Program-made: the position numbers and the translations under genes
The notes under the pieces: generated by a model
Seen by the model: the letters and a program-made list of their open reading frames with translations, nothing else
The model's database searches: none
What the model was told of the DNA's origin: nothing
DNA from: an uncultured delta proteobacterium
GTDB taxonomy: Bacteria; Desulfobacterota; Binatia; UBA9968
Length of the DNA stretch: 64,000 nt
NCBI GenBank assembly: GCA_963745035.1
Contig: CAVUVW010000015.1
Coordinates: 256,001 to 320,000 of the forward strand
Direction of reading: 5' to 3'
Shown: positions 30,298 to 51,385 of the stretch, piece by piece
Numbering within the stretch: position 1 is the first letter of the stretch
Layout: each line of letters begins with the position of its first letter

Positions 30298-30300
30298 ACC

Positions 30301-30328
30301 GTAAGGGCGGGTTTCAAACCCGCCCTAC
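30301..30328. repeat. REP-like palindrome
   Basis: GTAAGGGCGGGTTT-C-AAACCCGCCCTAC. Confidence 0.8.
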
Positions 30329-30339
30329 TGGAATACCCG

Positions 30340-32593: not shown

Positions 32594-33009
32594 GGGTAGG
32601 GCCTGTAGATTTCCGACTCCGGCGGTATCTCCATGAGCTCGATGCTGTTGCCGTCCGGATCGGAGATGAACGCGATGCGTTGCTTGGCGCGGCCGATGAA
32701 TTTTCTCTCCGGCTTGACGTTCATCTTCTCCAGATGTTCGAGGGCTTGTTCCAGATCGTCCAAAACTACGCAGAAGTGTATGTAGCCGATCGGATCCGGC
32801 GGCGACGGCAGCATGTTTTTCCCGCCGGTAAATAGCTCTATGCATTGGCCCGTGGAAAACTCCAAAAACATGAGCTCGGGCCGATCCCCCTGCGCCTCGG
32901 CGTGATATATTTTTTTGGCGCCGAAGGCATCGGCGTACCAGCGCACGCTGCGCTCGGCATCGGCTACTTTGAAAGCCACGTGTCCAAAACGAAGCCCTGC
33001 AATCGACAT
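32590..33009 (-). CDS. VOC (glyoxalase/bleomycin resistance) family protein
   Basis: GHVAFKV.D..RS..WY, IELF, HFC..DD, FISDPDGNSIELME. Confidence 0.92.
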   Translation of the reverse strand: MSIAGLRFGHVAFKVADAERSVRWYADAFGAKKIYHAEAQGDRPELMFLEFSTGQCIELFTGGKNMLPSPPDPIGYIHFCVVLDDLEQALEHLEKMNVKPERKFIGRAKQRIAFISDPDGNSIELMEIPPESEIYRPYP

Positions 33010-33027
33010 AGCTCTTTCTCCCTATCG

Positions 33028-34065
33028 CTAGTTTTGATCCTTCAACGAATAAAACTCGACGCAATTATCCCGCAGGATACGCCTTTTGACTGGCTCCGAG
33101 AGGTCTTCTCGCGCCTGGAAGCGCGGGATGTCTTTCAAAAATTCCTCGAGGGTCGGCCGCTCGTGCGGATAGTCCGATGGATAGAGAAGCTTCTTTTCCA
33201 AACCCAAGCCGACGACGTAGGGAATCAGCCTCTCCTCGAGCTCGCATGAAAAATAGATCGGACAGTTGAGAACATAGTAACTCGGCTCTTTGCTGAGCAG
33301 CGGCGCCTGCTGCGAAAGTTTCTCGAATTTTTCGTCGAGCCGTTCCATGAGATAGGGCACCCAGCCGACACCCGCCTCGAGAAATGCCATCTTCAAAGTC
33401 GGAAAGCGTACCGGCGCGCCGTCGAGAATATAGCTGGTGAAATGAATCTGCTGCGCGACCGCATGTTCCATCACCAAAATCTTGATGAATGAATCATAGA
33501 GGTCGAGCCCCAGTCCCTGACTCGAGCCGCCGTGAACCGCCAGCGGCACGTTGAGCCGTACCGCGGCTTGATACAAAGGGTCGTACATGGGATGGCCAAG
33601 TCCGCGCGACAAGCCCGCTGCGGGAATCACGCCGCCGACCATGCCTAACTCGCTGACACAGCGCTCGAGCTCTTCCGCCGCCGCCGCGATATCCTGAATC
33701 GGCAGCAACGCTACTCCCCACAGTCGTTTCGGCTCCTGCTTCAGATACTCGCCATAAAGATAGTCGTTGTAACAGCGCGCCATCACCGACGCCCATTTCG
33801 TGTCCTTGATGTGCGCCATAGCCAAGCCCATGGTCGGATAGAGCACCGAGCCGGCCACACCGGAACCATCCAAGAACGTGCGCCACTTTTGCAGACAAGG
33901 CGTAGAGTCCGGCGCTTTTCTCGTACTGCGCGGCCAGCCATCGAGCGACGGAAACAACGCGGTCAGCGCGCGCCGCCCTTCGAACGGCGGCGGCAAGTAG
34001 CGGCGCAATTCTTCGTCGGTTTCCATGACATGCCCGTCGGCATCGATGGGAGCGTAGTCGGCCAT
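33028..34065 (-). CDS. Amidohydrolase-2 family protein
   Basis: IDADGHVME, VLYPT, CYNDYL, LAVHGG, FLEAGVGW, SDYPHE. Confidence 0.92.
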   Translation of the reverse strand: MADYAPIDADGHVMETDEELRRYLPPPFEGRRALTALFPSLDGWPRSTRKAPDSTPCLQKWRTFLDGSGVAGSVLYPTMGLAMAHIKDTKWASVMARCYNDYLYGEYLKQEPKRLWGVALLPIQDIAAAAEELERCVSELGMVGGVIPAAGLSRGLGHPMYDPLYQAAVRLNVPLAVHGGSSQGLGLDLYDSFIKILVMEHAVAQQIHFTSYILDGAPVRFPTLKMAFLEAGVGWVPYLMERLDEKFEKLSQQAPLLSKEPSYYVLNCPIYFSCELEERLIPYVVGLGLEKKLLYPSDYPHERPTLEEFLKDIPRFQAREDLSEPVKRRILRDNCVEFYSLKDQN

Positions 34066-34079
34066 TTTTTCAACTCCTG

Positions 34080-35087
34080 TCACTTGCCCCAGAGGGATTT
34101 GTAAAAACCCTCGCTGATCAGCTCTTGCACGAGGCTGTTGTCATAGAACTGCTCGGCGGCGAGGTCTTTGGCTTTCGGATTCTTGACCGCTTCCTGTTCG
34201 AGCACAACCTGCACGCCCTCGCGTCTGACCAACGGGATCTTCTCGGTGAAATCCTGGGCGTATTTCAAGCTGCCTTCGAGCATGCCCGGGTCCTCGACTT
34301 TGGTATACTTAGCGAGAATCGTCTTCGCCGCATCACGCTGTTGAAACATCGCGTGGGTGGCTCGACCGAAGGCACGCAAGAATGCTTTGGCATCGCGGCG
34401 ATTCTCCTTCAGATAACGGCGCGACGTCGTCAGTCCGGCGATGACAAAATAGATTCCTTCATTCGCGAGATTGGCCAAAACCCGATTGCCGCGTTGTTCG
34501 GCAACGTAGGACATGGGCGAGGAGAGCGGCGCGGCGCTGATCGCGCCGCTGCTGAGAGCCGCCGCCAGTTCCGGCATGCCGCCGGATTGAATCACCGTAA
34601 CATCGCGGCCCGGTTGGAGCTTGTTTTTCTGGAGATACTCGCGGACAGCGAAGTCGGAAGACGAGCCGAGGCGGGTCACGCCGACGCGTTTCCCTTTGAG
34701 ATCTTGGACACCCGCGATCTCCGGCCGCGCAATGATGTAAAAAGCCGTCGTGTTGATCACGGCGCCCATCAAGACCAAGTCGCCGCCTTGCAGGCCGCTG
34801 CTCACGACACTCGAGCTGTTGGCGGTCGAGATCACGACCTCGCGCGCGAACATCGACTGCGCCATCGTCGTGGAGCTCGGAATGTAAACGAGTTGGACGT
34901 CCAATCCTTCCTTCTTGTAGAAGCCCATCTCCTTGCCGATCCAAAACGGCAGAAACACCGACGTGACAGAGGAATAACCAACAACGGTCGTCTGCGCGGC
35001 AACGAAGTTACACGGCAACGAGCACAGCGTTACAATGAGCAGCGCGATTCTTAGGAAATGCGCCCGTCCTTTTTGTGCGCTCATCAT
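34080..35087 (-). CDS. NitT/TauT-family substrate-binding protein
   Basis: Signal peptide, GFYKKEGLDV, DLKGKRVGVTRLGSSSD, FYDNSLV. Confidence 0.9.
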   Translation of the reverse strand: MMSAQKGRAHFLRIALLIVTLCSLPCNFVAAQTTVVGYSSVTSVFLPFWIGKEMGFYKKEGLDVQLVYIPSSTTMAQSMFAREVVISTANSSSVVSSGLQGGDLVLMGAVINTTAFYIIARPEIAGVQDLKGKRVGVTRLGSSSDFAVREYLQKNKLQPGRDVTVIQSGGMPELAAALSSGAISAAPLSSPMSYVAEQRGNRVLANLANEGIYFVIAGLTTSRRYLKENRRDAKAFLRAFGRATHAMFQQRDAAKTILAKYTKVEDPGMLEGSLKYAQDFTEKIPLVRREGVQVVLEQEAVKNPKAKDLAAEQFYDNSLVQELISEGFYKSLWGK

Positions 35088-35281
35088 CGCTTTTCCTTAC
35101 TCTGGAGCAAAGAGATTGTCCAGGTATCCCGCGCCGCTGATCGCTTGGCTTCGGGACTTCGCCCGAATCAACGAACAAATCTTCTTTGACAGCTAATTCG
35201 TTCTGGACTATCTACGGAACAACATCGACCGTGGTGTACGAGATCGATCTAGTCATACACTGCCCGAAGGAGGATACTGAA

Positions 35282-36686
35282 ATGAATCATCTCGCAAACT
35301 TCCACCGTTCTTTAATCGGTGCATTCTTATTGCTTCTCCTTTGCACGGTGCCCGAAGTCTCCGGCCAATCGTCGATTCTCGGTGGCGCCCAAGGACGGCA
35401 ACCAAGTTATGGCGAACTGGAGAATTTTACGATTCTCTCCTACACCGATCTCGATGGCTGGGACCAAGCGGCCGAGTTTCGCATCAGCAAAGACGGCAAG
35501 CACGCCTATATTTCGAATTATCAAGGCTTCAGCATCGTCGACGTCAGCGATCCAGCTAAACCGCGCGATTATCTCCAAGGTCAAGAACCATCCCAGCGTG
35601 CAGAGCCAGTATATCGATGTGCTGGGAAATCTCTTAGTCATCAATCAGGACGGAGTGCGTGACCAAAAGACCTGGGAAGGCGGCATCCGCCTCTATGATA
35701 TCAGCGATCCGGCCAAGCCGCGTGAGACTGCATTTTTCAAAACCGACGTGTCGCCGCGCCGAGGCGTCCATGGATTTTGGCTGCACGAAGATCCCAAAGC
35801 AAGGAAAGTTCGCTTTCATTGCCACCACCAAGGAAGGCTACTACGATAATATTTTGATGATCATCGACATCAACGATCCCGCCAATCCGAAAGAAGTCGC
35901 GCGCTGGTGGTTTCCCGGGCAATGGACCGCCGGAGGCGAAAAACCGGGAGAAGATTGGGTCGAGCCGGACGGCGGCCTGCGTCAAGGGCTGCCGAAAATC
36001 TGGGTCGCGCTGCACGACATCACGACTTACAAAGACCGCGCCTACCTCGCCTATCGCGACCAAGGCGTGATCATTCTGGATATCAGCGACGTGCGCAAGC
36101 CGACCATGATCAGCCAGATCAAATGGTCGCCGCCCGAAGAGGGAAACACGCACAGCATCGGCATCGTAGTTCCGTCGCACGGCGGCAGGCCCGATATCAT
36201 TGTCGCCGGGGACGAGATTAGTCCGTCCCGAAAATTGTCCCTTCGGGTACATGCACATGATCGACGTCCGCAACGAGAAAAATCCGGTGCAGATTTCGAC
36301 ATTCAGGCTGCCCTTGAACAAGTTCTGTCCTCCTGATCGTCCCGGCCGCCGCTTTGGCATCCACGATGTCGACCGGATGATCAAAGGGGAATATCGTTTT
36401 CAGCGCCTGGGAGAATTCCGGCTTTTGGGCCGTCGACATTTCCGATCCTCACGCGCCTAAGGCCGTCGGCCATTTCGTGCCGCCGGTGTTTCGCCGAGTG
36501 AATTCGGACGCCGGCCACGCCGACGATGTTTTCGTGCACGACAACGGCTTGGTTTTCTTCAGCTCGTCCGATCCCGGCGGCGGCTTCTGGATTACGCGCT
36601 ACACGCCCGGCGTAAAAGGGACGGTGTCGTGGACGCCGGATAATAAAAATGTCACCGTGAAGTATGAGAAGCGGCAGGAGAATTGA
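35282..36686 (+). CDS. Secreted LVIVD-repeat beta-propeller protein (about four frameshifts)
   Basis: GGAGG RBS, signal peptide; repeated SIVDVSDPAKP / RLYDISDPAKP / MIIDINDPANP / IILDISDVRKP / MIDVRNEKNP / AVDISDPHAP. Confidence 0.85.
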
Positions 36687-37094
36687 TTCAAGGCGGACTG
36701 CTTCCACTACTGTCGTTCGTCTCTCTTGCTCCCAGTCGCGGCTCTTGCCGGTCATGGAATTGAAGACACCATCGACATGCTTCCCGCGGAAAGGGTGAAG
36801 CAGCTCATGGATGCCGGCGAGAAGCTTGTCTTTATCGACATGCGCCCGGCGAAGGAGTATCAGCAGAATCGATTGCCGGGAGCGCGCTCGCTGCCGATCG
36901 CCGAAGTGGCGAACCGCTTTAGTGAGATCCCGAAAAGCGGCCGCGTGGTTCTCTACTGCGACTGCAAGACCTACGACATCGCCGATCGCGCCGTGTTCCT
37001 GGAGTATCGCGGCTATCGAAATATTTTCGTCATGCCGGAAGGTTATTCGGGCTGGGTGAAGCGCGGCTATCCGATCGAAACCAAATCTCGCTGA
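36683..37094 (+). CDS. Rhodanese-like protein with signal peptide and CxC active loop (5' frameshift likely)
   Basis: FIDMRP..EY...LPGA.SLP, VVLYCDC, GY.GW...GYPIE. Confidence 0.85.
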
Positions 37095-37450
37095 TGATTC
37101 GGTGGAGCGCCGCTCTATTCTTGTCGTTGCTAGCGCCGTCGCCGCTTTCGGCTCACGCCTATCTGGTCAAATCCGTCCCCGCCCAGCGCGCCGTGTTGTT
37201 CCGCGCGCCGGATAAGATCCAACTCTGGTTCAACGAACGCCTAGAGCCGCGCTATTCCTCGATCACGGTGAGCGACGCCGAGGGCAGGCCGGTGGACGCC
37301 GGCAAAGCCGAGGTCAACGCGCAAGATCCTAAGCAGCTCTCCGCGTCGATCAAATCCCTGCCTGCCGGCCGCTATTTCGTCAAATATCGCGTGCTCTCGG
37401 TCGACGGTCACATCGTTCAAGATCAATTTCCCTTCACCGTCAAACAATGA
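37094..37450 (+). CDS. copC: CopC copper-binding periplasmic protein
   Basis: Signal peptide then H1 (SA-HAYLVKSVP), FNE, GRY.V.YRVLSVDGH. Confidence 0.93.
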   Translation: MIRWSAALFLSLLAPSPLSAHAYLVKSVPAQRAVLFRAPDKIQLWFNERLEPRYSSITVSDAEGRPVDAGKAEVNAQDPKQLSASIKSLPAGRYFVKYRVLSVDGHIVQDQFPFTVKQ

Positions 37451-39460
37451 CCGACCTTGCGGCAGTCGTTCGATTTGTTCATGTGACGGCTGCCGTGCTT
37501 TTAGCCGGTGCTTTCAGCTTCACCTTGCTCATCGCGCGGCCGGCCTTTCGGCGTGCTGGCCGATGAATCGCGCGCTGAATTCGCGGCGTTCTTGCATATT
37601 CAGTTGCGCATCGCCCGCTGGTGCTGGCTCGCGCTCGTCGCATCCGCTTTGCTTGGGCTCTGGCTGCAAACCGCCGCAGTCAGCGAGTCCGCCGATTTTC
37701 GCGGAATTCTTACTCTCCTCCGGGAAACGCAGTACGGCAACGTCTGGTCGGCGCGGCTGATCCTAGCGCTCATCTTGCCACTTATATTTCGGTTCGAGTC
37801 GAAGCGCCGCGGAAACGATGCCGGCATTCTTACCGTGGTCGGATTTATTCTAAGCGCTGCTTTGCTCGCATCGCTGGCGCTCGCAGGCCACGCCGCCGCT
37901 GCCGAAGGTAGAGCGCTGATCGCCCAGGTCTCAGTCGATGCTCTGCACCTTCTGGCCGCGGGAATCTGGCTCGGCGGTCTTCTGCCGCTTGCCCTCATGC
38001 TGCGCGAATGCAACCGCAAAAGCGCTGCTGTGACACTTGCCGTCGCCGGGGCAGCGACACAGCGTTTTTCTACTCTCGCGATGGTATGCGTCGGCACCGT
38101 AATGGTGACCGGCGCCTACAACGCGTGGACGTTGGTTGGTGGCTTTCCGCCTTTGTTTGGCACCGCTTATGGCCGGTTGCTGCTGCTGAAACTTGCTTTG
38201 CTCTTGCCACTGCTCGCTGTCGCGGCCGTGAATCGCTTGCGGTTTAAGCCGAAAGTCGTCGAAGCAAGTTCCTATCAAAGCAACTCAACGCTCGTGAGAA
38301 AACTCATCCACAACGTCTTTCTGGAAACAAGTCTCGGCGTCGGCATTTTGCTTATCGTCGGCTATATGGGTGTCACGCCGCCGGCGCGTCACGTCCAAGT
38401 GGACTGGCCGTTTTCAACGCGCTGGGATTGGAGCGTGCTGGACAAAGCGCCCAAGGCCCAAGCAGAAGTCGAGCGCGGTATTGTTTGGGCGGCGATCGGC
38501 GGCGTCGCCCTGATAACCACTCTGGTGCGGCGCCGTCGTCGGATCGTGACGGCTGTCATTGGACTCGGCGCGTTAGCGTACGCCGGCCGCGTGGCGGTCG
38601 ATGCGGTTTCCACCGACGCTTATCCGACCACCTACAAGCGTCCGGCCGTGGCCTATCAAGCGATCTCCGTCGCCAACGGCAAGCAGCTTTACGAGGATAC
38701 CAGCTGCGTCTCCTGCCACGGACCGGCCGGCTATGGCGACGGACCACTGGCGGAGGAGTTGCGCCCCAAACCCGCCGATCTCACCGCGCCTCACGCCAAC
38801 ACGCACACCGCCGGCGATCTTTTTTGGTGGGTCAGCCATGGCGTCAAAAATACCTCGATGCCGGGCTTCGAGCAGAGCCTCGGCGAAGAGGAGCGCTGGG
38901 ATCTGATCAATTTCATGCGCGCGCTATCGACCGGCGACCGCGCGCGCTCCCTCGCGCCGGTCATCGAGAACGAGCCCTGGCTCATCGCGCCGGATTTCAC
39001 TTACGTGACGAATGCCGGTGAAGCCAAGACGCTCCGAGATCACCGGGGCGCCAGAATCGTCCTGCTGATCTTGCTCGATGTGAAAGCAACGGAGCAGCGT
39101 CTGAAGGAGCTCGTTGGCGCCTTACCCGCCCTCCGATCGGGAAATGTCGAGGTGATCGTAATTCCCAATCTCATCGACCTGCAAAACGTAGCCGATCGCC
39201 TGCCGGGACTCATCGTCAGCGAAGGCATCCGGGAAATCTCCGAAACCTACAAGCTGTTCGCTCGCTCCTTCTCCGATGAAGGCCTGGTCAGCGGCACGCG
39301 CCATGTGGAATTTCTGATCGACAAACAAGGCTACATCCGCGCCCGCTGGCTGCCGGCGGAGAACGAAGGCTGGAAGAGGATTGAGATCTTACTCAAGCAA
39401 ATCGATCTGCTGCGCAAGGAAAGACCTCGCGCTCCCGCGCCCGATGAGCATGTGCATTAG
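37447..39460 (+). CDS. copD: CopD fused to cytochrome c and C-terminal redoxin-like domain (frameshift near 37545)
   Basis: LAGHA, HLLAAGIWLGGL, TAYG.LLLLK CopD motifs; CVSCHG heme motif with distal MP; FLIDKQGYIRAR redoxin-like end. Confidence 0.87.
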
Positions 39461-39521: not shown

Positions 39522-41498
39522 TCAATCGAGCAGCTTTCTCGTATCCAGGTGAATAAACCGCGCGCCGCGGTCTTTGGCGCGCTCGACCATGTCCTCGGTG
39601 CCGCCCGGCCCGTCACCGGTGGCGCCGTTCCACAATGCGATCAGGGTAAGATGATCCTGCGACAGGGCTAGCGCGTTGTGAAGCATCCACAAATTGGACC
39701 GCTGCCAAATGTTGTAATTCTTTTTCGCTCGCAACCAGCGCGGCAATCGATCCGAATCGGCGAGGATTCTTGGCGTGAGCTTTTCATAGAGCCGGTTGAA
39801 TCGCTCGACCCACTCCGGCCCGCTGTCCGCCACCGAGGCCTTGATGTAGTCTTTTTTCGGCAACACCAGATACATCTCGCTCGGAATCTTCAACTCCTCG
39901 CACACTTCGTGAAAAAGAATATCGCCGCCGGACGCGCCGCCGGTCAGGCCCACCAGCTTGCCATCGGTCTTTTCCTTCTCCCTGCTCACAGCGTCCAAAA
40001 TCATTGCCCTGGCCTGTTTTTCCTTGGCGGCGGGAAAGCGCGGCGTGGAACGGTTCGGTCCGTCGATACGATGTCCCGTAAACAGGATTACCCGCGGCGG
40101 AGGCTCTTTCGAGTAGCCGACGACCGGCGCAATCTGGTCCAGCCCTGCCTGGATATTGTCTTTCAAAACACCGAGACGCTGATAGAGCAGTAGCTGCCGT
40201 CGCACCGCGTCGCGCGCCTGCTCGGAGACGTCCGCCAGCGCCTTTCTATACGCTTGCCCCACGCGATTGGGGCGGCTCGACGTCAAGCAGAGCAGGTCGG
40301 CCGCGCTAATATCCGCCCATGCATCGGTCTTGCCTGTTCGCTGTAGCGCAAACTGCTTAGACTCGACGGCCAATCTGACGCCGGAAGCAAGATCGCCGCG
40401 TAGCTCTTTCAACGCGCGCAGTCTCTGCGCCGCTTCGTCCTTGGAGTCGAAATTGTCTTCCCAGGTCGCCGGCTGGGCTTGAGCCAGCTCCGTCAACATG
40501 GTCACCATCGCCAGGGCGTTTAAACCGGAATAAAAATGATTCCGGTCTTCGATGAAGCCTCGACGGTAAAGTTCCAAAGATTGCTCGACGAAGGGCGATG
40601 TGAGCGCGGCTTTCTGTGCCTCTTCGACCGGCGCGATCGCGGCCCAACTCCGCTCCCAGTGGTTCTTTGCGTTGCGTCCCATCAGAGCGCGGATCTCCGC
40701 CCGTTCGGCGGCTGAGCTTCCCCTGCTCTGCAGCGCGCGCTCCACCGCCTGGTCCGAGCTCACCGAGTCGCCGAGCCTTTGAAAGATCGTGGCGAGCAGC
40801 GTGTTCGCCTCGACGTCCATGTCGTCGTAATCGCGCACGGCTTGCCACGTGACCTTCGCGCCTGCCCAATCTTTCAAGGCAAATTGCCCATGGCCGACCA
40901 GACGCAGGCCGGTGGCGCGCCAATCAAAGTCGTCGATCTCCGCGGCCAAGAGCTGCAGGTCGCCGCCATGGTTCGCCGCCTCGGCCCGCTCGATTTCCTC
41001 GCGAAAATCCGCCGGCACGGCGATCACGGTATCCGGGTCCGCCGGTTGCAGGTTAGGCAGCAATTGATACACCGGGCTGTCGGCGTTTTGGGAATCCAAC
41101 GTCAGTTTGAGCGCCGCCGCCAGAAGGTCCAGAGCCCCGCGCGGGTCGTTGGCATCATAGGCCAGATACCTGTCCGTCTTGAGGTCGAAAGGTACGTCGC
41201 TTTCGTTCGCCGCGCTCGACTTGATCAGAAACGTCCGTTTGTCGCGCAGCGCATGGCGAATGCCCAGCTCATAGAAAACATTGGCGTTGTGAATCGAGAT
41301 ATCGGCAATCACCAGATCGGCGATGAGCAGCTGCTCGAACATGTCGGTGCGGATGTTTCCTTGCTGAAGAAATTCGCCCGTGGTTCCTCCGGTGAGCCCG
41401 GCCTGTTCCATCGCCGGGCGAATCAACTCTCCTTCCACTTTGTCAAAATCGATACCGCCTTTGGCGCCGAAGGGCCGCACGATAAATACGTTCAGCAT
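39522..41498 (-). CDS. Three-domain protein: deoxyribohydrolase-like (ASK/DUF4071-type) + TPR + SLOG-like domain
   Basis: VFIVRPFG..ADLVIADISIHNANVFYELGIRHA..PFD; helical repeats with YSGLNAL; ILFTGHRID..GASGGDILFHE..RSNLW..LIALWNG..GDGPGGT. Confidence 0.8.
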   Translation of the reverse strand: MLNVFIVRPFGAKGGIDFDKVEGELIRPAMEQAGLTGGTTGEFLQQGNIRTDMFEQLLIADLVIADISIHNANVFYELGIRHALRDKRTFLIKSSAANESDVPFDLKTDRYLAYDANDPRGALDLLAAALKLTLDSQNADSPVYQLLPNLQPADPDTVIAVPADFREEIERAEAANHGGDLQLLAAEIDDFDWRATGLRLVGHGQFALKDWAGAKVTWQAVRDYDDMDVEANTLLATIFQRLGDSVSSDQAVERALQSRGSSAAERAEIRALMGRNAKNHWERSWAAIAPVEEAQKAALTSPFVEQSLELYRRGFIEDRNHFYSGLNALAMVTMLTELAQAQPATWEDNFDSKDEAAQRLRALKELRGDLASGVRLAVESKQFALQRTGKTDAWADISAADLLCLTSSRPNRVGQAYRKALADVSEQARDAVRRQLLLYQRLGVLKDNIQAGLDQIAPVVGYSKEPPPRVILFTGHRIDGPNRSTPRFPAAKEKQARAMILDAVSREKEKTDGKLVGLTGGASGGDILFHEVCEELKIPSEMYLVLPKKDYIKASVADSGPEWVERFNRLYEKLTPRILADSDRLPRWLRAKKNYNIWQRSNLWMLHNALALSQDHLTLIALWNGATGDGPGGTEDMVERAKDRGARFIHLDTRKLLD

Positions 41499-41677
41499 GG
41501 ATTTCCCGTCTTGACCGGAACACTTTTCCGCAAGGCTCAAGTCTAGCGTTCTCGGGCGGTGCCCGACAAGCGCAATCTTTGCGATCGCCTTGACGTTGCG
41601 CATCTCGGGCGGCTATAAGCGGCGAGCACAACAAGTAAACCCTGGGTATGAAAGATTCCGGCCACAGGAGGTCGCTT

Positions 41678-43214
41678 ATGCGCTTCAAAGAAGCAACGAT
41701 TGATCGCCGCATGTTTCTGACAAAAAGCGCGGCCTTCGGCCTGGGCCTGTGCGCTCCGCTACCATTCACCGGACAGGCTTCGGCCGCCTCCCGCGACCGC
41801 GTCGTGGTTTTTCAGGGCGTCGGCTTGGATTCGCTCCATCCCTACGCCTACAGCGGCGGCGGCATCAGCGGCATCTGGCAGCACGTCATCGAGCCGCTGA
41901 TCGAGATGGATTTTTCGCGCAACGAGTACGCCGGCGTATTGGCCGAATCGTGGGAGTTTCAAGGTCGCAAATGGATTTTTCGCCTGCGAAAAAACGTGCG
42001 CTTCCACGACGGCTCGCCGTTTACCTCGAAGGATGTGCTGTTCTCGCTCGACCGCATGGTCAACGACAAAAAGAGCCTGCAGGCGTCCAACTTTATAGAA
42101 GTCACCGGCGTCGAGGCGCCGGACGAGCACACCGTGGTGATCTCGACCAAACAACCCAGCGCGGTCCTGCTGGAGCGGTTGAACAACCGTTTTATCGTCA
42201 GCCAGTCGGCGGTCGAGAAGAACAACAACCAGCTCGACAATTATAAAATCGGCACGGGAGCATACAAAATCACGAGCTGGCAAAGAGACGGCCTGTTGGT
42301 GCTGGCACGCAACGACGATTATTGGCGCGCCAAACCGGAGATCAAGGAAGCGATCTTCAAGACCGTAAAGGAAGAGGCGGCGCGCGTCTCCGGCCTGCTC
42401 GCCGGCCAGGCGGATGTCATCAGCAATCTGCCCATCGAAGAGATTCCCCGTGTCGCCAAGCACCCGCGCACGCGCGTGGAAAAAGTTCCCGGCTACCGCA
42501 TGTATTTTTTGGCGATGAACGTCACCCACAAGCCATTCGACAACAAGCTCGTGCGCCAGGCGTTCAACTATTCCATCGACCCGGTCGTGATCCTGAAACA
42601 TATCTATGAAGGCAACGGCTACGTCTTGAACGGCCCGCTGAGCTCCAACATGGTCGGCTACGATCCGGCGATCAAGCGCTACCCGTTCGACCCGAAAAAA
42701 GCCCGCGAGTTGCTCACCCAGGCCGGCTTTCCCAACGGTTTGGAAGTTAAGCTCCACTTGGCCCCCGATCGTCACCTCAAGGGCAAGGAAGTCTGCCAGG
42801 TAATCGCGCGCCAGCTCAACGAGAGCGGCATTAAGGTCGAATTGACGCCCCAGGAGTATCCGATTTACTGGGGCCGGGACGGCGTCAACGGCGGCAAGCT
42901 GCGCTTTCTATTATGCCGGCAGATCAGCTTATGACGCGGACACCTTCTACGATCAGTATTTTCACACCGGCGTCACCAAGCGCACCGGCTACAGCAATCC
43001 CGATCTCGACAAGCTCATCGAGGAAGAACAGCGCACCGGCGATGCGAAAAAGCGCTTGGCGGTCCTGCAGCAGGCGGGGCGGATCATCATGGAGGAGGCG
43101 CCGATCGTGCCGCTCTACACTCTGGCGGAGATTTATGGCGTGGCGCGAAACATCGTCTGGAAGGGCAACCCGAATAACGAGATCATCGTCTCGGATATGA
43201 AGATCAAGGTTTAG
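41678..43214 (+). CDS. Family 5 (peptide/nickel-type) ABC substrate-binding protein with Tat signal (frameshift near 42905-42930)
   Basis: DRRMFL Tat motif, LAESW, LRKNVRFHDG, GTGAY, PFDNKLVRQA, YDP.KAR.LL. Confidence 0.9.
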
Positions 43215-44709
43215 ATCGGCTAAAGAAATATTCGAGCAGCGCGCGGCCGAAGCGCGACGCGTGAATGCCGTGGGCGGCGAAATCATCGGCAAAGGCATCC
43301 AACGCCCAGCGCGCCGCATCTCGATACCGCGCATCGCCCGAAGCACGCCAAAGTCGTAGTAAAGAAGATTGCGGCCGCGCCGTTTTGATCCAAATCGGTC
43401 AGACGGAAATTTCCGTAAGGCCGATCTCTCCGCCGCTGCAAATCGAAATAACCGCCTGCGGGATTTCTTAGCCGCGCGCTGATGAAATCCGCCAGTTCGC
43501 GCGCGCGCTCGAGATATCGCATCGCCGCCGGCGAAATATGCTTGAACCAGCGCGGTGCCCACTTGCGCTTGATCTTCGAGCAGCCCGGGCACCGGGGTGC
43601 GCCATCGTGATAGTGAAACATCCCTTGCGCCGGGCGTGCGGCAGCAACTCCAAAGAAACTCGAGAACGCTTAACGCCCGCTCGTTGCAATCGGGACGACC
43701 CAAAAGCGTCGCGGCGTCGAGATATGCGCTAACCGCCTGAGCGTTGGCGTCGCTGTAAATGCACTCGTCGATGATGGTAAAAAATTCTTCGGTGGAAGAG
43801 CTTCCGGCGCCTTCGCGGCGCAAAAAATCTTCGCAGCCGAAGAAGATGCCGCGCTGGGAGTCAAAAAGTTTGTTATTCAGATAGTCGATGATCTCTTCGG
43901 CCATATGGGCCGTATTCGGCCCGCCCGGTCAGGCGAAACACTTGGAGACAATTCGGCAGCAGGCCCGCATGCTCGCCCAAAAGCTTTTCGCGATGCGGCT
44001 GGCTCCAATCCGCCCCGCTCGTCGTGCGAAAATAGCCGCCTTCCTTCGCATCGTGAATTTGACCTTCGCGCATACCGTCGAGCGTCCGGCAAGCATGCTC
44101 GAGATATGCGACCTCTCGCGTCGCCTCGTAGAGGGCAAGCAAAAAATCGTTTGCGGCCGGATGAATAAATTTTTGACCCTGCCCATAGCCGCCGTGAATG
44201 CCATCGGCCTGGCCCATGATCGAGCGCGTAATCTCAGTCAAGCATTTCCGCATGGGAGCGCTTGCGCTCTCGCGCCGACGTTGCTGGTCGTTGCAGAAGG
44301 CGCTGCCGTCAGACGCTGTTCGAGGTTTTTCGCCTGATAACTCATGTAGACATTGAGCAACAAGTCCTTGAATTCCTCGACGGCAAGGTAGTTTGTCGCG
44401 GCAAGCAGCTCGCCGCCGGGAGTGAAAAACGCGATGTCGGCCAGCCGTTCAGATTATAGCGCGCGTCGATGTCGGGCCGCGTGGCGTTTTCGACTCGAAG
44501 CGCAATGAAGTAAGCATTCAGCAGACGCCATGTTTTCGCGGTCAGAAAGCGCGCCTTCATCCATGCGCTGGCAATAGCGGCACCAAAACGCCGACAAGAA
44601 AAGCATCACCGGCTTGTCTTGCTCGCGCGCGCGCTTTGAGAGCGTCGTCCTCCCATTCGAACCAGCGGATGAGATGAGCAAGATTTGGATTAGGCGAAAA
44701 CCGCAGCAT
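43203..44709 (-). CDS. DUF255/YyaL (SPATA20-like) thioredoxin-domain protein (many frameshifts)
   Basis: MLRFSPNPN.AHLIRW..W, DKPVMLFLSAFWCRYCQRMD, RPDIDARY..GWPT, GG.G..QKF, GGYFR...DWS.PH.EKLL. Confidence 0.8.
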
Positions 44710-44898
44710 GAGTGAATCCGGTACCCTGCATTCTTAATACTCAATATCACCCTTTTGCATCCAGGAAAAACCAGCCCCCACATTTGAACTACAGCAAACT
44801 GCGGCAGGCTCAGAAAAGTAATCGATAACCGGGCCGCTGCCATCTCGAACAAGAGAGAGACTATTCAATACAGCGTGCCGCGCTTCGAACCTCGTGCG

Positions 44899-44928
44899 TT
44901 GACAAGCTTCTCCGCCAAGGCATAAGAT
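44899..44928 (+). promoter_or_regulatory. Putative sigma70 promoter for grdE-like/grdB-like genes
   Basis: TTGACA-N18-TAAGAT, then GGAG RBS before ATG 44967. Confidence 0.55.
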
Positions 44929-44966
44929 TCCGTACTTGGCGGCGCTTCACGCTTTCGGAGAGAATC

Positions 44967-46248
44967 ATGCAACTGACCTTGGCCAATCATCCGATCACAA
45001 ACATGCGCTTCGGCGCGCCGGCGCGCCTCGAAGGCACCGATCTGGTCGTCGATGCCGACGAGCTGCGCCGTATCGTGCTCGACGACGATGCCGTCGTCAG
45101 CGTCGACTTCGAAATCGTTCGTCCGGGCGAGAGCTGCCGCGCCGGGCCGATCTTCGATGTGATTGAACCGCGAGCCAAGGAGCCCGGCTACGGCGCCGAT
45201 TTCCCCGGCATTTTGGGCGCGCCGCTTACGGCGGGAATGGGCACGACACATGTTCTAAGCGGCGCGGCGGTATCGGTGCTCGCGGAAATCTCCCCGATCT
45301 TACGAGAAGCGCCACCGGGCGCGTTCTCGAAATGAGCGGCGCTCCGGCTGAGGCGAGCGCCGTATTCCGCGCTCACGCACCTGCTCGTGATTCCGCACAC
45401 CAAACCAGATTTGCCGCGCCAAGCGATTGAAAAAGCTTATCGCATCGCCGGCATTCGAGTCGCGGTGCGCTGTCGCGCGACTCGCTCTAAGACCGCGCCG
45501 CGGATCGCGGCACCAGTTCGAGCCGGTCGGGCCGGCGCGGCAAGCCGCGCAGGTCTGCCGCGCGTCGCCTACATCGGACAGATTTTTTCCCGCCAGCGCA
45601 AACCCGCCGTCGACGAGCCGATTCTTTACGGCGCCAATACCGACGGCATGCTGCCGATCATGCTCCATCCCGATGAATGGCTCGACGGCGCCATCGTGCC
45701 GTCGCTGCATTCATGGTTCGGCGGCACGGAAACTTATTTCTATCAGAATCATCCGATCATTCTCGATCTCTATCGGCGCCATCAGGCGCGCGAAATAAAT
45801 TTCGTCGGCACGGTCGCCACCATCGCCGGCTCGGACAATTTCGACCGCGAGCGCCACTGCAAGGCGGCCGCCAATCTGGTGAAATGGAATTTGCAAGCCG
45901 ACGGCGCGGTGCTGTCCAAATACGGCGGCGGCTTGCCCCACGCCGATCTGGCGGAAACTGCGCGTCTGCTCGAAGACATGGGCGATAAAAACGGCGGTGA
46001 TGGTTTCCGACGTGTCGCGCGACCGGCGAGTCGAGTCGGCGCTGCTTTTCAATGTCCCGGAAGTCAACGCCATCGTCTACAACGGCGGCAACGGCACGTA
46101 TTGGGAAGTGCCAAAAGTGGATCGCGTCGTCGCCGCGACCGCGGAATTTACCGAACTGCTGGCCGGCCCAATGAAGATCGACGCGGCCAATATCGTCGGC
46201 GTAACCAACCAGCAAGGCGCATCGAAAATGAGAGCATTGGTGTACTAG
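44967..46248 (+). CDS. Glycine/sarcosine/betaine reductase component B alpha/beta-subunit homolog (GrdE/GrdG/GrdI-like; frameshifted)
   Basis: RPGES.R...FDVIEPRAK..FPG...G.THVL.G.AV; LPRVAYI, P.MLHPDE.LDGAIV, QNHPII.DLY.RH...NFVG, ADGA. Confidence 0.85.
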
Positions 46249-46252
46249 AAGG

Positions 46253-46325
46253 CCACGAGGCGAAAGGCGTGAGGCGTGAGTGAGGATTCATACTCATGCC
46301 TCGCGCCTCAAGCCTCATGCCTTGA
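46253..46325. repeat. Inverted array of 7-bp repeats (GAGGCGT / GCCTCAN)
   Basis: gaggcga aaggcgt gaggcgt gag ... ctcat gcctcgc gcctcaa gcctcat gcctt. Confidence 0.78.
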
Positions 46326-46334
46326 GGAGCTTCC

Positions 46335-47625
46335 ATGCGAGTCGCACATTACTTGAATCAGTTCTTCGGCGGCGTCGGCGCTGAGGAGCATGCCGGCAAG
46401 GGTTTGGAGATCCACGACGGCGCGGTCGGGCCCGGCCGGCTGCTGGAACAGTTGCTCGGCGGCAGACGCGCGCGTCGCATTGACTTTTGTCTGCGGCGAT
46501 AATTTCGCGGTCGAAAATCAAGATGAGTTGACCGCCGCCGTGCTGGAAAGGCTCCGCGCCGCGAGCATTGATCTGTTCGTCGCCGGTCCATGCTTCGATG
46601 CCGGACGCTACGGCATGGCGGCCGGCGCGCTTTGCCGCGCCGTGCAAAGCGAACTCAAGATTCCCGTAATCACCGCGATGAGCGAAGAAAATCCCGGCGT
46701 CGATCTCCACCGCGACGCGCTCTACATCATCGACTCGGGAACGAATGCGGCAAAAATGCGCGACGTGCTCGGCAAGATGGCCGAGCTCTCGGCCAGAAAC
46801 TTGTCGCCAACGCGCCGATCGGTTTGCCCGGCCGAGGAAGGCTATTTGCGGCGCGGTTGGCTGCGCGATCAACTGGTCGAAAAAACCGCGGCGACCCGGC
46901 TCGTCGACATGCTGCTTGGCGAAAATGAGCGGCGCGCCGTTCGAATCCGAAATGCCGGCCACGTCGTTCGCGCCCGTGCCGATACCGGCGGCGATGCAGG
47001 ATCTATCGAAAGCCAAGGTGATGTTGATCACCGACGGCGGCCTGGTTCCCAAGGGCAATCCGGATCGGATCGAGGGCACCGCCGCGACGCGTTGGGGCGC
47101 TTACAACATCGAAGGCCGCGACGATCTGCGCGGCGAAGAATACGAAGTTTCCCACGGCGGCTACGACACGCGATTTGTTCAGGAAGATCCCGATCGGCTG
47201 GTTCCGCTCGACGCCATGCGCGAGATGGAAAAGAACGGCGTCATCGGTAAGCTCCACGATGAATTCATTTCCACCTGCGGCCGCTCCAATCCGCTGTCGA
47301 ATACGCGCCGGCTCGGCCGGGAGATCGCCGACAAGATCAAGAAGGACGGCGTCGACGCGGTCATCCTTACGTCGACGTGAGGTACCAGCACTCGCAGCGG
47401 CGCTGCGATCACGACCGAGCTGGAGAAGGCGGGCATTCCCGGTCGTGCAAATCACCTCCGCCCTGCCGATTGCCAAAATGGTCGGCTCCAACCGGGTGGT
47501 TCTCGGCGACCGGCATCGTCCACGTGACCGGCGACGCCAAGCTTCCGCCCGCCGACGAAAAGGACCTGCGGCGAAAGTTCGTCCAGCAAGCGCTCGACGC
47601 GCTGCAGTCCGACAAGACACAGTAG
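46335..47625 (+). CDS. grdB: Glycine/sarcosine/betaine reductase selenoprotein B homolog; Sec at UGA 47378-47380 (also frameshifted)
   Basis: MRVAHYLNQFFGG.G.EE.A, CGDN, AGPCFDAGRYG, EENPG, GGLVPKGNPDRIE, HGGYD, DPDRLVPLD, VDAVILTST-UGA-GTSTRSGA..ELEKAGIPVVQI. Confidence 0.9.
47381..47416 (+). promoter_or_regulatory. Bacterial SECIS-like hairpin in grdB
   Basis: 11 nt after UGA: TCGCAGC-GGC-GCTGCGA stem-loop (47392-47408), G at loop start; GGT/ACC lower pairing. Confidence 0.72.
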
Positions 47626-47783
47626 CCGCTCCTCGTTCTGAACGAGCTTCCCGGGATTGGCGTGAGGCGGGCAACGGGGCTTGCGTCAGCGTCAACCCTT
47701 GATTGCTCGCCTGCAGGTCACGCCGCGCTCTACACAAACGGTGAATTTATCGTTAGAATCTTCTCGGCCTGCAGTTTTTATTT

Positions 47784-48434
47784 ATGGATGCGTCAAAAAC
47801 CAAGTTTCTCTTGCTTGGCCTGGGCGTCGTCGGTCTGGGCATCGTCCTGGGCACCGCCCTTTGGCTCAGAGTCGGGGCGCCGCAGGGACCGTGGGGCCAC
47901 GCTTCGGGCAACTCGGCTGAGAGTCTCGAACAGTATGGCGCGGTGCCCGATTTCGCATTGACGGAAAGAAACGGCAATGCCGTCGGCCTCGACGAGCTGC
48001 GCGGCAAGATTTGGATCGCGGATTTTATCTACACGACCTGCACGGACACCTGCCCATTGCAGACCGCGATGATGGCCAAGCTCCAGCAAGAATATGCCCA
48101 CAAGCCTGAGGTACAGTTCGTTTCGTTTACGGTCGACCCGGAGCGGGACACGCCGGAAGTGCTGACGGCTTACGGCGCCAAACACCAAGCCGACGCCGCG
48201 CGCTGGTATTTCTTGACCGGCCGGCGCGATCGCATCATGCGCTTGATCCAGGATGGGTTTCACCTGGCGGTGGCGGCGCTGCCGGTCGATGCCGCGCCCG
48301 GCGGCATGATCCCGCACAGTCCGCGCTTTGTCTTGGTCGACAAGCAATCCCGCATCCGCGGCTACTATGACAGCCGCGACCTCGAGGCATTCGCGCGCCT
48401 CAAGAACCACATCGATACTTTGTTGAAGGGGTAG
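47784..48434 (+). CDS. SCO/SenC family copper chaperone
   Basis: Membrane anchor, FIYTTCTDTCP (CxxxC), TVDPERDT, HS.RFVLVD. Confidence 0.93.
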   Translation: MDASKTKFLLLGLGVVGLGIVLGTALWLRVGAPQGPWGHASGNSAESLEQYGAVPDFALTERNGNAVGLDELRGKIWIADFIYTTCTDTCPLQTAMMAKLQQEYAHKPEVQFVSFTVDPERDTPEVLTAYGAKHQADAARWYFLTGRRDRIMRLIQDGFHLAVAALPVDAAPGGMIPHSPRFVLVDKQSRIRGYYDSRDLEAFARLKNHIDTLLKG

Positions 48435-48440
48435 ATAGAG

Positions 48441-49313
48441 ATGGCCAACGAGAAAAGCAAGAAAGGCAAGCAACCGGCTGCCGCGGGACTCGTGCGCGAG
48501 GGGCCGAACTGGCCGCTGTTTGTGCTGGCGGTTCTCGGCATGGCCTTGTCGGGATATCTCACGTTTTCCGCGTGGCAAGGAGACCGCGCCGCGTTCTGCG
48601 CCGAAGGAGCCGGCTGTGATGTCGTGCTCAGCAGCCGCTGGGCGACGCTCCTAGGCATGCCGACCTCATTCTGGGGTTTTCTAACTTACGCGCTGCTCGG
48701 CGCCGTCGCGTGGAATCGCGATGCCGCCAATCAATGGCGCTGGGCTTGGGTGATTTCCCTGTTCGGTCTGTTTTTCAGTCTGTATTTAACCGGCGTCTCG
48801 TTTTTGTCATTGCAGGCAGCCTGCCCCTACTGCCTGGGTTCGCTCGGGCTGATGACGGCTATTTTTCTTCTGACGACGTTGCAGCGACCGAAGAACTTGC
48901 CGAAGTTTTCCTGGGGACCGTTCCTGGGAAAAAGCGTCGGTGCCGCGGCGCTCGTCATGATCGCGCTGCATCTGCACTACGCCGGCTACCTGGGCAGCGC
49001 TCCCAAACCCGAGGACCCCTGGATTCGCGCCTTGGCGGAGCATCTGTCCAAGACCGACGTGAAGTTTTACGGCGCCTCGTGGTGCCCTCACTGCACCGAG
49101 CAGAAACACCTCTTTGGCAGCTCGGAAAAGCGCATCCCTTATGTCGAATGCAGCCCGGGTGGATCCAAGGGACCCCAGGCGCCGGCTTGCAAGGAGAAAA
49201 ATATTCAGAGCTATCCGACCTGGATCATCAACGGACAGCGCTATACCGGCATCCAGCCGTTGGATGCGCTCGCGCGGTTCAGCAACTTTCAATATCAAGG
49301 AGACAAACGATGA
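48441..49313 (+). CDS. Vitamin K epoxide reductase (VKOR) fused to thioredoxin-like domain
   Basis: FC....GCDVVLSS, ACPYC, FYGASWCPHC, YVEC, SYPTW. Confidence 0.93.
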   Translation: MANEKSKKGKQPAAAGLVREGPNWPLFVLAVLGMALSGYLTFSAWQGDRAAFCAEGAGCDVVLSSRWATLLGMPTSFWGFLTYALLGAVAWNRDAANQWRWAWVISLFGLFFSLYLTGVSFLSLQAACPYCLGSLGLMTAIFLLTTLQRPKNLPKFSWGPFLGKSVGAAALVMIALHLHYAGYLGSAPKPEDPWIRALAEHLSKTDVKFYGASWCPHCTEQKHLFGSSEKRIPYVECSPGGSKGPQAPACKEKNIQSYPTWIINGQRYTGIQPLDALARFSNFQYQGDKR

Positions 49314-49783
49314 TCGCGCTCCGGATGCAACAAAGCGGTGGCGCCGCTCTCGTGAGCTTGGCGCTGACAATTTTTTCGATCGGACCGGCGCACGCGGATC
49401 CTTCCAAATATCCGGCCTTCGCCCAGCAGTCGCTGCCGCAAGATATCAAGCCGGAATTTATCGGCATCGAGGATCTCGTCAAAGAGATCCAGGCGGGCGC
49501 CAAGCCGGTGATCATCGACGTGCGCACGGTCGAAGAATTTCACGAGGTGCATATTTTGGGCGCGGTTTCCGCCCCGCTCGCGGAGTTCAAGGATTATGTG
49601 AAGAGCATTCCGCGCGATCGCCCGGTCGTGCTCTATTGAGCTTGCCCCCATCACCTGGCCAGTCTGGCCTACGGCATGCTCTACGAAAACGGTTATCGCA
49701 ACATGAAGATCCTCGACGAAGGAATCGTCGGATGGTACCAAAAGCGCTATCCGATGGAAGGGACCAAAACGCCCCGCTCCTGA
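49310..49783 (+). CDS. Exported rhodanese-like selenoprotein; Sec at UGA 49637-49639
   Basis: GGAG RBS, signal peptide (AHA-D), IIDVR..EEF...HILGA, VVLY-UGA-ACPHHLA...GYRNMKILDEGIVGW...RYPME; frame continues to TGA 49781-49783, 3 nt before the queC ATG. Confidence 0.87.
49638..49681 (+). promoter_or_regulatory. Bacterial SECIS-like hairpin in rhodanese gene
   Basis: GGCCA-GTC-TGGCC (49657-49669), loop 22 nt after UGA; lower stem GAGCtTGCC/GGCAtGCTC. Confidence 0.7.
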
Positions 49784-49786
49784 GCT

Positions 49787-50483
49787 ATGGCCGCTAAGAA
49801 CGCCGTGATCCTGCTGAGCGGCGGCATCGACTCCGCCACCGCCGCCGCCGTCGCGAAACGGGACGGCTACGATCTGCATGCGTTGACCTTCCACTACGGC
49901 CAGCGCCACGAGCGGGAGATCGAGTGCGCCGGGAAAATTGCCGCATTCTTGGGGGCAAAAACACAAAAGGTCATGCGCTTCGACTTGCGAGCGATCGGCG
50001 GCTCCGCTCTCACCGACGACATCGCGGTGCCCAAGGAACGGAGCGAGGACGAGATCGCGGCCGGCGTGCCGATGACCTACGTGCCGGCGCGCAACACCAT
50101 CTTTCTGTCGTTCGCATTGGCGCTCGCCGAGCGCATCGGCTCCCAGGATATTTTTTTCGGCGCCAACCAATTGGACTACAGCGGCTATCCGGATTGCCGC
50201 GACGAATACATCCGGGCGTTTGAAAAAATGGCGAATCTGGCCACCAAGGCCGGAGTGGAGGGCAAGAGCCGGATGAGCGTTCACGCGCCGCTACTGCAAA
50301 TGACCAAGGCGGAGATCGTCAAGCTCGGTGATTCCCTCGGTCTTGACTTCGGTTTGACCTGGAGCTGCTACGATCCGCGACCGGGCGGGCGGGCGTGCGG
50401 CCAGTGCGACAGCTGCCGGCTCCGGCTGAAGGGCTTCCGCGAAGCCGGCCGCAGTCGATCCGCTCGCCTACGCCGAAGACTGA
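49787..50483 (+). CDS. queC: 7-cyano-7-deazaguanine synthase (frameshift near 50450)
   Basis: LLSGGIDS, YGQRH, TYVPARNTIFLS, DYSGYPDCR, TWSCY..CGQCDSC.LR; ends VDPLAYAED* after a one-base shift. Confidence 0.95.
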
Positions 50484-50494
50484 AGTGTTTGTCC

Positions 50495-51385
50495 ATGTTG
50501 TCCACTCCGTTCACCGCCGAATTTCTCAGTCAGCTCGAAGCGCTGCGCTTGCGCACGCGAAAGGAATTTCTCGGCAGCCACCCGGGCAGCTACTCTTCAC
50601 CGCGGCGCGGCACGAGCTTGGAGTTTTCCGACTATCGCCGCTACTCTCCCGGCGACGATCTGCGCTACATCGATTGGGGCATCTACGCGCGCAGCGACCG
50701 GCTGTTCATCAAAGTTTTTCGCCAGGAAGTCGATCTCTTCGCCTACGTCTTCATCGACACCAGCGCGTCGATGGCGTTTCCCTCGCGCGCGGAGAAATTC
50801 TTGCCCGCAAGCCATGTCGCGCTGGCGCTTTCCTACGTGGTCCTGGCCAATCACGATCACGTCAAGCTGCATTTGCTCCAAAACACGAGCAACACCGCGT
50901 CCCAGTTCTATCGCGGCCGGCGGCGCATGCGCGATTGCGTGGAATTTGCCACCTCCGCTGCCCCGGGCGGATCGCTGGATCTGGCGTTCGCGTTGAGCGA
51001 ACATCTCCAGCGGGTGCGCCGGCCCGGCAAGGCCATTCTGATTTCCGATTTCCTGATGCCGGCGGCGTCTTACCAGCAGGGACTCAACCTGCTGCGCGCG
51101 TCGAATCTCGATGTGGTGGCGATTCAGGTGCTGTCGCGCCACGAAGTCGATCCGCCCTTTCCCAACGGCAGCGTGGCGTTGATCGACAGCGAAAGTCAAA
51201 ATGAGATCAAGCATCAGTGGAGCGCGGCGGCGCGGCGCGAATACCAGGCGAGGCTCGCCCATCATAACTTGGAGATTCGCAGTTTCTGCCACCAGAGCGG
51301 CATGCACTATTCGCTCTACGTGACCGATCGCGATCTCGGCGATTTTGTCTTCGCCACCTTGCCGGCCATCGGCCTGTTCAAATAG
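50495..51385 (+). CDS. DUF58 domain protein
   Basis: G.SLEFSDYRRYSPGDDLRYIDW..YAR, IDTSASM, LISDFL. Confidence 0.93.
   Translation: MLSTPFTAEFLSQLEALRLRTRKEFLGSHPGSYSSPRRGTSLEFSDYRRYSPGDDLRYIDWGIYARSDRLFIKVFRQEVDLFAYVFIDTSASMAFPSRAEKFLPASHVALALSYVVLANHDHVKLHLLQNTSNTASQFYRGRRRMRDCVEFATSAAPGGSLDLAFALSEHLQRVRRPGKAILISDFLMPAASYQQGLNLLRASNLDVVAIQVLSRHEVDPPFPNGSVALIDSESQNEIKHQWSAAARREYQARLAHHNLEIRSFCHQSGMHYSLYVTDRDLGDFVFATLPAIGLFK

Follow-up and report, generated by a model that had tools for sequence, protein, structure and literature searches.

A GrdE-like and GrdB-like selenoprotein pair of Candidatus Binatia without the cysteine motifs of glycine reductase and apart from grdA, grdC and grdD

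The stretch of DNA analyzed here (64,000 nucleotides, positions 256,001 to 320,000 of contig CAVUVW010000015.1 from an uncultured delta proteobacterium of the Binatia; hereafter the window) carries at 44967-47625 of the forward strand two adjacent genes that encode a GrdE-like and a GrdB-like protein. The reading that we prefer, and that we regard as an even call, is that they form the two subunits of a selenocysteine (Sec)-dependent reductase of the protein B type, which belongs to an uncharacterised clade, works without a pyruvoyl group and hands nothing on to GrdA or GrdCD. Judged by its homologues, the clade is typical of Candidatus Binatia and has relatives in the Chloroflexota. Comparison between genomes shows purifying selection on both genes, which stay together as a conserved unit, and as far as the alignments tell, the cysteine-derived route to a pyruvoyl group is closed to it. 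Independence from GrdA is plausible.

A six-frame reading of 44850-47750 showed the two genes adjacent on the plus strand and spread over all three frames. The grdE-like gene (44967-46248, +) matches PF09338 (Gly_reductase, the family of GrdE, GrdG, GrdI and PrdA) at 44967-45332 and 45387-45986, and the grdB-like selenoprotein gene (46335-47625, +) matches PF07355 (GRDB) at 46335-46460, 46459-46800 and 46880-47470. These Pfam matches bear out the position of the pair in a preliminary description of this DNA. After correction of frameshifts, 388 of 425 residues of the GrdE-like reading are identical to the intact homologue P0018, while the GrdB-like product shares 302 of its first 346 residues with homologue P0180. 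For comparison we used 17 related loci from a scan of species-representative genomes, mostly metagenome-assembled genomes (MAGs) labelled Binatia or 'delta proteobacterium' and one of Chloroflexota, each viewed to about 10 kb on either side of the pair. The canonical references were grdG/grdF/grdA of Peptoclostridium acidaminophilum, the trxB-trx-grdA-grdC-grdD-grdI-like-grdH operon of Enterococcus gilvus and the grdX-trxB-trxA-grdE-grdA-grdB-grdC-grdD operon of Acetoanaerobium noterae.

The GrdE-like subunit differs from its canonical counterparts at the site of cleavage. Its segment DGAIVPSLHSWFGGTETYFYQNHP (45684-45755, +) aligns to DGAILSGNCVSACDKNPTY of canonical GrdE, but has lost both Cys of the latter; it contains no Cys at all, and intact homologues carry the same segment. 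More specifically, the alignment places DGAIVP-SLHSWFGG (P-SLHSW) of the orphan clade where GrdE and GrdG have SGNCVxxC. The corresponding motifs are DGAILSGNCVSACDK in GrdE, DGAITSGNCVAPCDK in GrdG, SGSFMPCSSK in the GrdI-like protein and NRYW--EF in a FarE-like representative. The SGN-C-xxx-C site that marks the proprotein of glycine reductase protein B is absent from the orphan clade. The loss of the cleavage Cys pair, suspected in the preliminary description, thus persists after frameshift correction and alignment to the canonical proteins; a nearby Ser of the orphan clade lies off the Cys column. The same description stated that GrdI is not cleaved, in agreement with the GrdI-like protein of E. 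gilvus, which lacks the N-C site (SGSFMPC). The GNC site, the Cys of which we take to be the residue cleaved in canonical GrdE, is present in 6 of 113 aligned family sequences and absent from 107, a proportion that is skewed towards non-canonical members as the 113 are neighbours of a Binatia query. Within this alignment a Cys-less GrdE-like protein therefore appears to be the rule in the wider family. Of the first reading of this locus, the Cys loss, the orphan setting and the remote branch have stood, but the Cys-less state is less unusual than was first thought. The GNC-less sequences have a Cys of their own in part: the column of Cys57 (GExCR) holds Cys in 27 of these 107 and in none of the 6 GNC sequences. 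In the literature consulted the pyruvoyl group is described as cysteine-derived, with mention of 'two conserved cysteines' (PMC10838667, PMC9908766).

The GrdB-like subunit, in turn, has kept its Sec and, as a feature that the preliminary description had not recorded, lost both Cys of the UxxCxxC motif. The in-frame TGA at 47378-47380 (+) is read as Sec (ILTST-U-GTSTRSGAA) on the basis of reading frame and conservation. The window shares TGA-GTSTRSGAA with 12 of the 14 related loci whose sequence extends to the site (the exceptions are L006 and L012), and three further related contigs end before it. The protein sequence is conserved over the 80 codons that follow the TGA, and CGCAGCGGCGCTGCG, located behind the TGA, is invariant in all orphan copies, with variation at nearby synonymous sites. 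These bases form a hairpin resembling a Sec insertion sequence (SECIS) element, CGCAGC-GGC-GCUGCG with 6 bp, at 47393-47407 (+) and at a distance of 13 nt from the UGA. In two of its pairs both bases differ between the groups, with CG and AU in the orphan genes versus UA and UA in canonical grdB/grdF/grdH. Bacterial SECIS hairpins are expected 16-37 nt after the UGA, with a G in the apical loop. Taken together, the aligned genes display a conserved UGA followed on its 3' side by a predicted hairpin. Genes for the Sec machinery and tRNAs were not found in the window by a Pfam scan and a tRNA search.

In the alignment the B-type motif of the orphan clade (four aligned sequences and the window) reads TST-U-GTSTRSGAAI, versus TST-U-GTCTRCGATM in GrdB/GrdF/GrdH. 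The TST-U-G context of the canonical B subunit is retained, and both Cys of UxxCxxC are replaced by Ser: UGTSTRS is found in all four aligned orphan sequences and likewise in the window and the 12 loci. According to a 2026 review, the UxxCxxC motif likely interacts with GrdA (PMC13188914). Another Cys is specific to the clade, namely Cys86 (AGPCF), which is invariant in 9 of 9 orphan sequences and is Ala in the canonical proteins.

Homologues of the pair are numerous, and intact ones of 426 and 427 amino acids (aa) are very common in metagenomes. Of 2160 candidates compared with a 140-aa piece of the GrdE-like protein, 1342 matched at E <= 0.001; the best 120 of these 1342 are 91-97% identical to the piece and mostly 424-426 aa long, and their named sources are Candidatus Binatia (5 entries) and Chloroflexota (1 entry). 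A piece of the GrdB-like protein matched 5869 proteins, and among the best 120 a length of 346 aa is shared by 118, which indicates that gene callers stopped at the TGA. Candidatus Binatota was the commonest phylum in the three nearest clusters of the ESM Atlas. An exhaustive search of 1.84 billion representatives yielded 911 clusters at E <= 0.001; beyond the Binatia group, identity falls to 50% for the nearest cluster and to 41% or less for the remaining ones. In a family tree of the 113 sequences (midpoint-rooted FastTree, read without support values) the Binatia and Chloroflexota sequences form one clade, nested in a large Cys57-bearing group on the FarE-like side and away from the small GrdE/GrdG/GrdI group. 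In a plasmid collection, a full-length GrdB-type gene was seen on a gammaproteobacterial megaplasmid or chromid of Photobacterium sp. DA100 (42.7% identity over 99% of the query).

Classification by NCBIfam models was in line with a separate branch. None of 112 full-length representatives reached an NCBIfam cutoff, and no equivalog cutoff was reached by either protein of the pair. The only model passed was TIGR01918, the generic selenoprotein B subfamily of the glycine, betaine, sarcosine and D-proline family (cutoff 65.45 bits), with 474.1 bits for the intact relative L002, 510.6 bits for L017 and 125 and 205 bits for the GrdB-like pieces of the window. TIGR01917 (GrdB, cutoff 602.2 bits) was not reached by L002 (436.9) or L017 (455.4). 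The suggestion that the pair represents an undescribed branch agrees with both its remoteness from GrdE/G/I in the tree and these scores, and a search of the literature outside subscription journals found no description of the clade. For neither protein was a relative in the PDB found by sequence. The AlphaFold2 model of the GrdE-like protein is confident (predicted local distance difference test, pLDDT, 93.1), and a fold search with it gave no PDB match at E <= 0.001, with a query-normalised template modelling score (TM-score) of at most 0.22; type II dehydroquinase-like folds showed part-domain likeness only and were rejected. The model of the GrdB-like protein, built from 9 sequences, is poor (pLDDT 56.5).

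The preliminary description reported no grdA, grdC, grdD or thioredoxin system in the window, and this extends to the related loci. A Pfam scan of the 94 open reading frames (ORFs) of the window found no GrdA, GrdC, GrdD, TrxB, Trx or GrdX, and the GRDA, GrdC/D and TrxB families were not found among 74 ORFs of L002, L008, L010, L015 and L017. Likewise, a tblastn search with canonical GrdA/C/D/TrxB/Trx/GrdX against the window and the 17 related loci (267,000 bases) returned nothing relevant. The best E-values were 0.38 for GrdA, 0.086 for GrdC and 2.1 for GrdD, and GrdX gave weak short matches (E 0.003-0.01). The sole match under E = 0.001, of TrxB at 1e-7, concerns an ORF of L008 that resembles a flavin monooxygenase and was discarded. 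A caveat to this absence is the presence of two redox genes close to the pair, the divergent DUF255 gene for a thioredoxin-fold CxxC protein and a VKOR gene (see below).

The setting also has an oxygen-dependent character. As noted before, dioxygenase and luciferase-like monooxygenase genes lie in the neighbourhood: the Pfam scan found a LigB dioxygenase at 12214-13452, luciferase-like monooxygenases at 1781-2884 and 30298-31416, and SCO1/SenC at 47757-48431. Oxygenases and genes for cytochrome-oxidase assembly are part of the gene set of the host. The Binatota have been described as aerobic methylotrophs and alkane degraders, and the accessible text of that genome paper contains no word starting with 'selen' or 'betaine' (PMC8262859).

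How such a pair might act can be sketched from its better known relatives. The GrdE-like subunit would not be self-cleaved and would carry no pyruvoyl group, and the substrate would not be held as a Schiff base. By analogy with betaine reductase and fluoroacetate reductase, we propose that the GrdB-like subunit uses its selenolate to attack the alpha-carbon in a substrate of the type X-CH2-COO- with a good leaving group (an onium or a halide). The resulting selenoether would then be resolved by a thiol, for which the candidates within the pair are the clade-specific Cys86 or the family-wide Cys53 of the GrdB-like protein and Cys57 of the GrdE-like protein; a thioredoxin-fold protein from outside might also serve, for example the adjacent DUF255 protein with its CxxC motif. 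This protein can be put forward as a candidate reductant by inference only. There would be no hand-over to GrdA/GrdCD, and hence no acetyl phosphate. We favour such a self-contained reductive cleavage, similar to that of PrdAB, because UxxCxxC is lost, grdA/C/D are not found near any of the 18 copies and the host is apparently aerobic.

The closest precedent, though not a close relative, is FarE/FarB of Cloacibacillus porcorum (NF053623). It too consists of a GrdE-like protein and a GrdB-like Sec protein, and according to the published description, by which FarB was compared here rather than by alignment, FarE lacks the two pyruvoyl Cys and FarB the CxxC after Sec, as in the orphan pair (PMC10838667). 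The same source likens FarE to GrdI, and the FarE-like P0376 also has Cys in the GExCR column. However, P0018 scores 141.3 bits against a cutoff of 675 for NF053623, is 30% identical to P0376 and is not its sister in the tree, and the host of FarEB is a strict anaerobe with grdA/C/D. Betaine reductase GrdH/GrdI resembles the pair in that its E-type subunit has no N-C cleavage site and its substrate is unable to form a Schiff base. On the other hand, GrdH keeps U-GTC-TRC where the orphan protein has Ser at both places, the betaine operon includes trxB, trx, grdA, grdC, grdD and a BCCT transporter, and the orphan GrdB-like protein reaches 436.1 bits versus a cutoff of 775 (NF040795).

With GrdB-GrdE and GrdF-GrdG the orphan pair shares the two Pfam families, the TST-U-G context and the position of a hairpin 3' of the UGA, whereas the GNC site and the CxxC are missing and the scores remain at 437 versus 602 bits (GrdB), 486 versus 800 (GrdF) and 185 versus 780 (GrdG). 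The grdX-trxB-trxA-grdA-grdC-grdD context of A. noterae was not seen around it. The architecture that we propose is that of D-proline reductase PrdA/PrdB, which is described as a two-protein Sec reductase without GrdA or acetyl phosphate (PMC13188914). PrdAB, however, is pyruvoyl-dependent, and the orphan proteins score 22.6 versus 700 bits (PrdA, TIGR04480) and 100.2 versus 300 (PrdB, TIGR04483).

Several points weigh against an independent, non-pyruvoyl pair. The folding energy of the SECIS-like hairpin is no better than that of shuffled sequence (z 0.60). No neighbour is shared by all sub-clades, hence there is no pointer to reductant or substrate, and the DUF255 gene is syntenic in only 8 of 18 sources including the window. 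Moreover, GrdB-type enzymes are regarded as working only without oxygen (bioRxiv 10.1101/2022.07.06.499078). A rather unlikely but serious alternative is that the pair is a substrate-specific protein B module which delivers to a shared GrdA/GrdCD/thioredoxin system with its genes in another part of the genome, acts under anoxic or micro-oxic conditions and yields acetyl phosphate. In many bacteria several B complexes are described to feed one reductase system, with the modules kept apart from grdA/CD, and farEB, with the same two motif losses, has been tied to GrdA and protein C through the up-regulation of grdA (PMC10838667). In P. acidaminophilum, about 3 kb of DNA with other genes separate grdA from grdGF, and as our view extends to the window and the flanks of the related copies, grdA/grdC/grdD may be located further away. 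Nevertheless, 267 kb around 18 copies held no grdA/C/D/trxB, both Cys of the motif supposed to contact GrdA (PMC13188914) are replaced, and the lineage is described as aerobic in a paper whose accessible text is silent on selenium and betaine (PMC8262859). A Ser that is conserved in the clade 1-2 positions before the Cys column allows for a further explanation, in which the GrdE-like protein forms a pyruvoyl group from Ser (P-S-L-H-S-W) and an amine such as glycine or sarcosine is reduced through a Schiff base. Most pyruvoyl enzymes are reported to use Ser (PMC9908766), and this one follows a P/I residue in all Binatia-type and Chloroflexota sequences; it is, however, not aligned to the Cys column, its place is taken by G or A in the nearest outgroups (RGY, RAY), and the other Cys of the canonical pair has been lost as well. 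A Ser-derived pyruvoyl group is thus unlikely on the alignment, and we would be surprised if this explanation held.

The remaining alternative concerns the state of the genes in this genome: the frameshifts could be real and the pair a decaying pseudogene without function here, even if the family works elsewhere. A frameshift-aware alignment to intact homologues revealed 11 single-base indels in 2.66 kb, five in the grdE-like gene (near 45291, 45362, 45468, 45535 and 45981) and six in the grdB-like gene (four before the TGA, near 46464, 46792, 46824 and 46915, and two after it), while the window also holds unbroken genes, among them those for AlaS (884 aa) and RecA and several ORFs of 600-875 aa. 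Damaged copies occur elsewhere as well. In L006 about 20 nt of the grdB-like gene are gone near 10403, including the Sec codon, and in L012 the gene (6584-7246) stops after about 173 residues; together with the frameshifts of the window and of L003, these copies make a real and very recent decay possible. In L012 genes of the PEP (phosphoenolpyruvate)-mutase family, for a thiamine pyrophosphate (TPP) enzyme and for PrpD lie 3' of the shortened gene. Against decay, the sole stop in 853 corrected codons is the Sec TGA, with not one nonsense substitution, and the ratio of nonsynonymous to synonymous substitution rates (dN/dS) of the corrected genes versus five relatives is 0.08-0.14, near the 0.066-0.116 of the ten pairs among the relatives themselves (0.066-0.144 over all 15 pairs). 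Block-wise frameshifts also split unrelated genes in the Pfam scan of the window ORFs (SBP_bac_5, DUF255, LVIVD, NMT1, PEP mutase and QueC/DUF58), and single frameshifts also occur at the related MAG loci L003 (two) and L010, a pattern that fits consensus errors. Because dN/dS is about 0.1 and the Sec TGA is the only stop, the 11 frameshifts are most likely assembly errors, and the presence of frameshifted blocks beside long intact genes suggests an uneven consensus quality of the assembly. Decay of the pair is, on balance, improbable. The frameshifted or run-together blocks of the window lie at 8031-9189, 17694-18681, 29409-30294, 35638-36683, 41639-43211, 42927-44864 and 49784-51382, and include a QueC fused in frame to DUF58.

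The presence of a GrdB-type selenoprotein is taken as a sign of anaerobic Stickland metabolism, and automatic annotation calls such proteins glycine, sarcosine or betaine reductase. The orphan clade is abundant in metagenomes, strongly conserved and found in oxygenase-rich genomes, and it probably catalyses a different reductive bond cleavage from the classical glycine reductase reaction. At the least, such annotations are wrong for thousands of database entries, and the PF09338 family consists for the most part of unexplored proteins without the Cys. A further-reaching proposal, which we offer tentatively and with less confidence than the subunit reading itself, is that of a two-subunit selenoenzyme of the protein B type in aerobic or facultative soil Binatia, which would need neither GrdA nor a pyruvoyl group and would cleave C-N+, C-S+ or C-halogen bonds beside a carboxylate by means of Sec and either clade-specific Cys residues or a thioredoxin-fold donor alone. 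If true, the 'Stickland' selenoprotein B family would leave the strict anaerobes and take on a detoxifying or scavenging role. Independence from GrdA would mean that a widespread, uncultured lineage of soil bacteria carries out a new kind of reductive bond cleavage with selenium, and would explain in a new way why these bacteria retain the Sec machinery.

With respect to expression, a promoter of its own had been proposed for the two-gene unit, and sigma-70-like hexamers (TTGACA-18-TAAGAT, 44899-44928, +) are indeed found 39 nt 5' of the grdE-like ATG, by a consensus match of 10/12 only; the region holds two such sites versus 0.6 expected. Between the genes lies a predicted hairpin (46249-46325, +; minimum free energy -53 kcal/mol, z -7.5), the arms of which consist of tandem AGGCGTG-like heptamers and their inverted complement, and the ribosome-binding site of the grdB-like gene is located 3' of it. 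The AGGCGTG-like unit is repeated four times, and five of the six matches of the pattern in the window fall here. Of 11 stretches examined from 10 related loci, 6 have a hairpin in this position (z -1.85 to -5.5). It has counterparts in L002 (11276-11362), L005 (11276-11380, built of different heptamers), L001 (1291-1366) and L009 (916-1012), and was not found in L006, L007, L013 and L017. An Rfam search of 44400-47900 gave no riboswitch or known RNA; its sole match, of a miRNA model to this hairpin (E 0.062), was judged to be due to chance.

Only the pair itself is conserved across the sub-clades, and its neighbours differ between them. Just upstream of it and divergent lies the frameshifted DUF255/Thioredoxin_7 gene for the thioredoxin-fold protein (42927-44864, -; WCRYC), which is found at the same place in 7 related loci, and an ATP-binding cassette (ABC) family-5 substrate-binding protein gene with one frameshift (41648-43214, +) is syntenic in 5 related loci (6 of 18 sources with the window). 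A VKOR gene follows downstream (48435-49310). In other sub-clades the neighbours encode an MFS transporter, NamZ, GNAT, flavin adenine dinucleotide (FAD) and PNPOx proteins, amidohydrolases or monooxygenases. The pair is flanked by a copper/thiol-redox set (36687-39457 and 47757-49636) of a rhodanese, CopC, a CopD-cytochrome c fusion, SCO1/SenC, VKOR and a second rhodanese-like ORF, the upstream part of which is syntenic in L002, L003, L005 and L006. Elsewhere the window contains an island resembling aromatic-acid catabolism (350-4530, 9972-13452, 25769-26797 and 31616-35096) with two UbiD-family decarboxylases, the LigB dioxygenase, several Amidohydro_2 proteins, luciferase-like monooxygenases and many NMT1/THI5-like binding proteins. 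Finally, the region 39522-41603 (-) encodes a 693-aa protein with a TPR-S sensor domain as its only Pfam match, which is kept upstream of the pair in L002 and L005.

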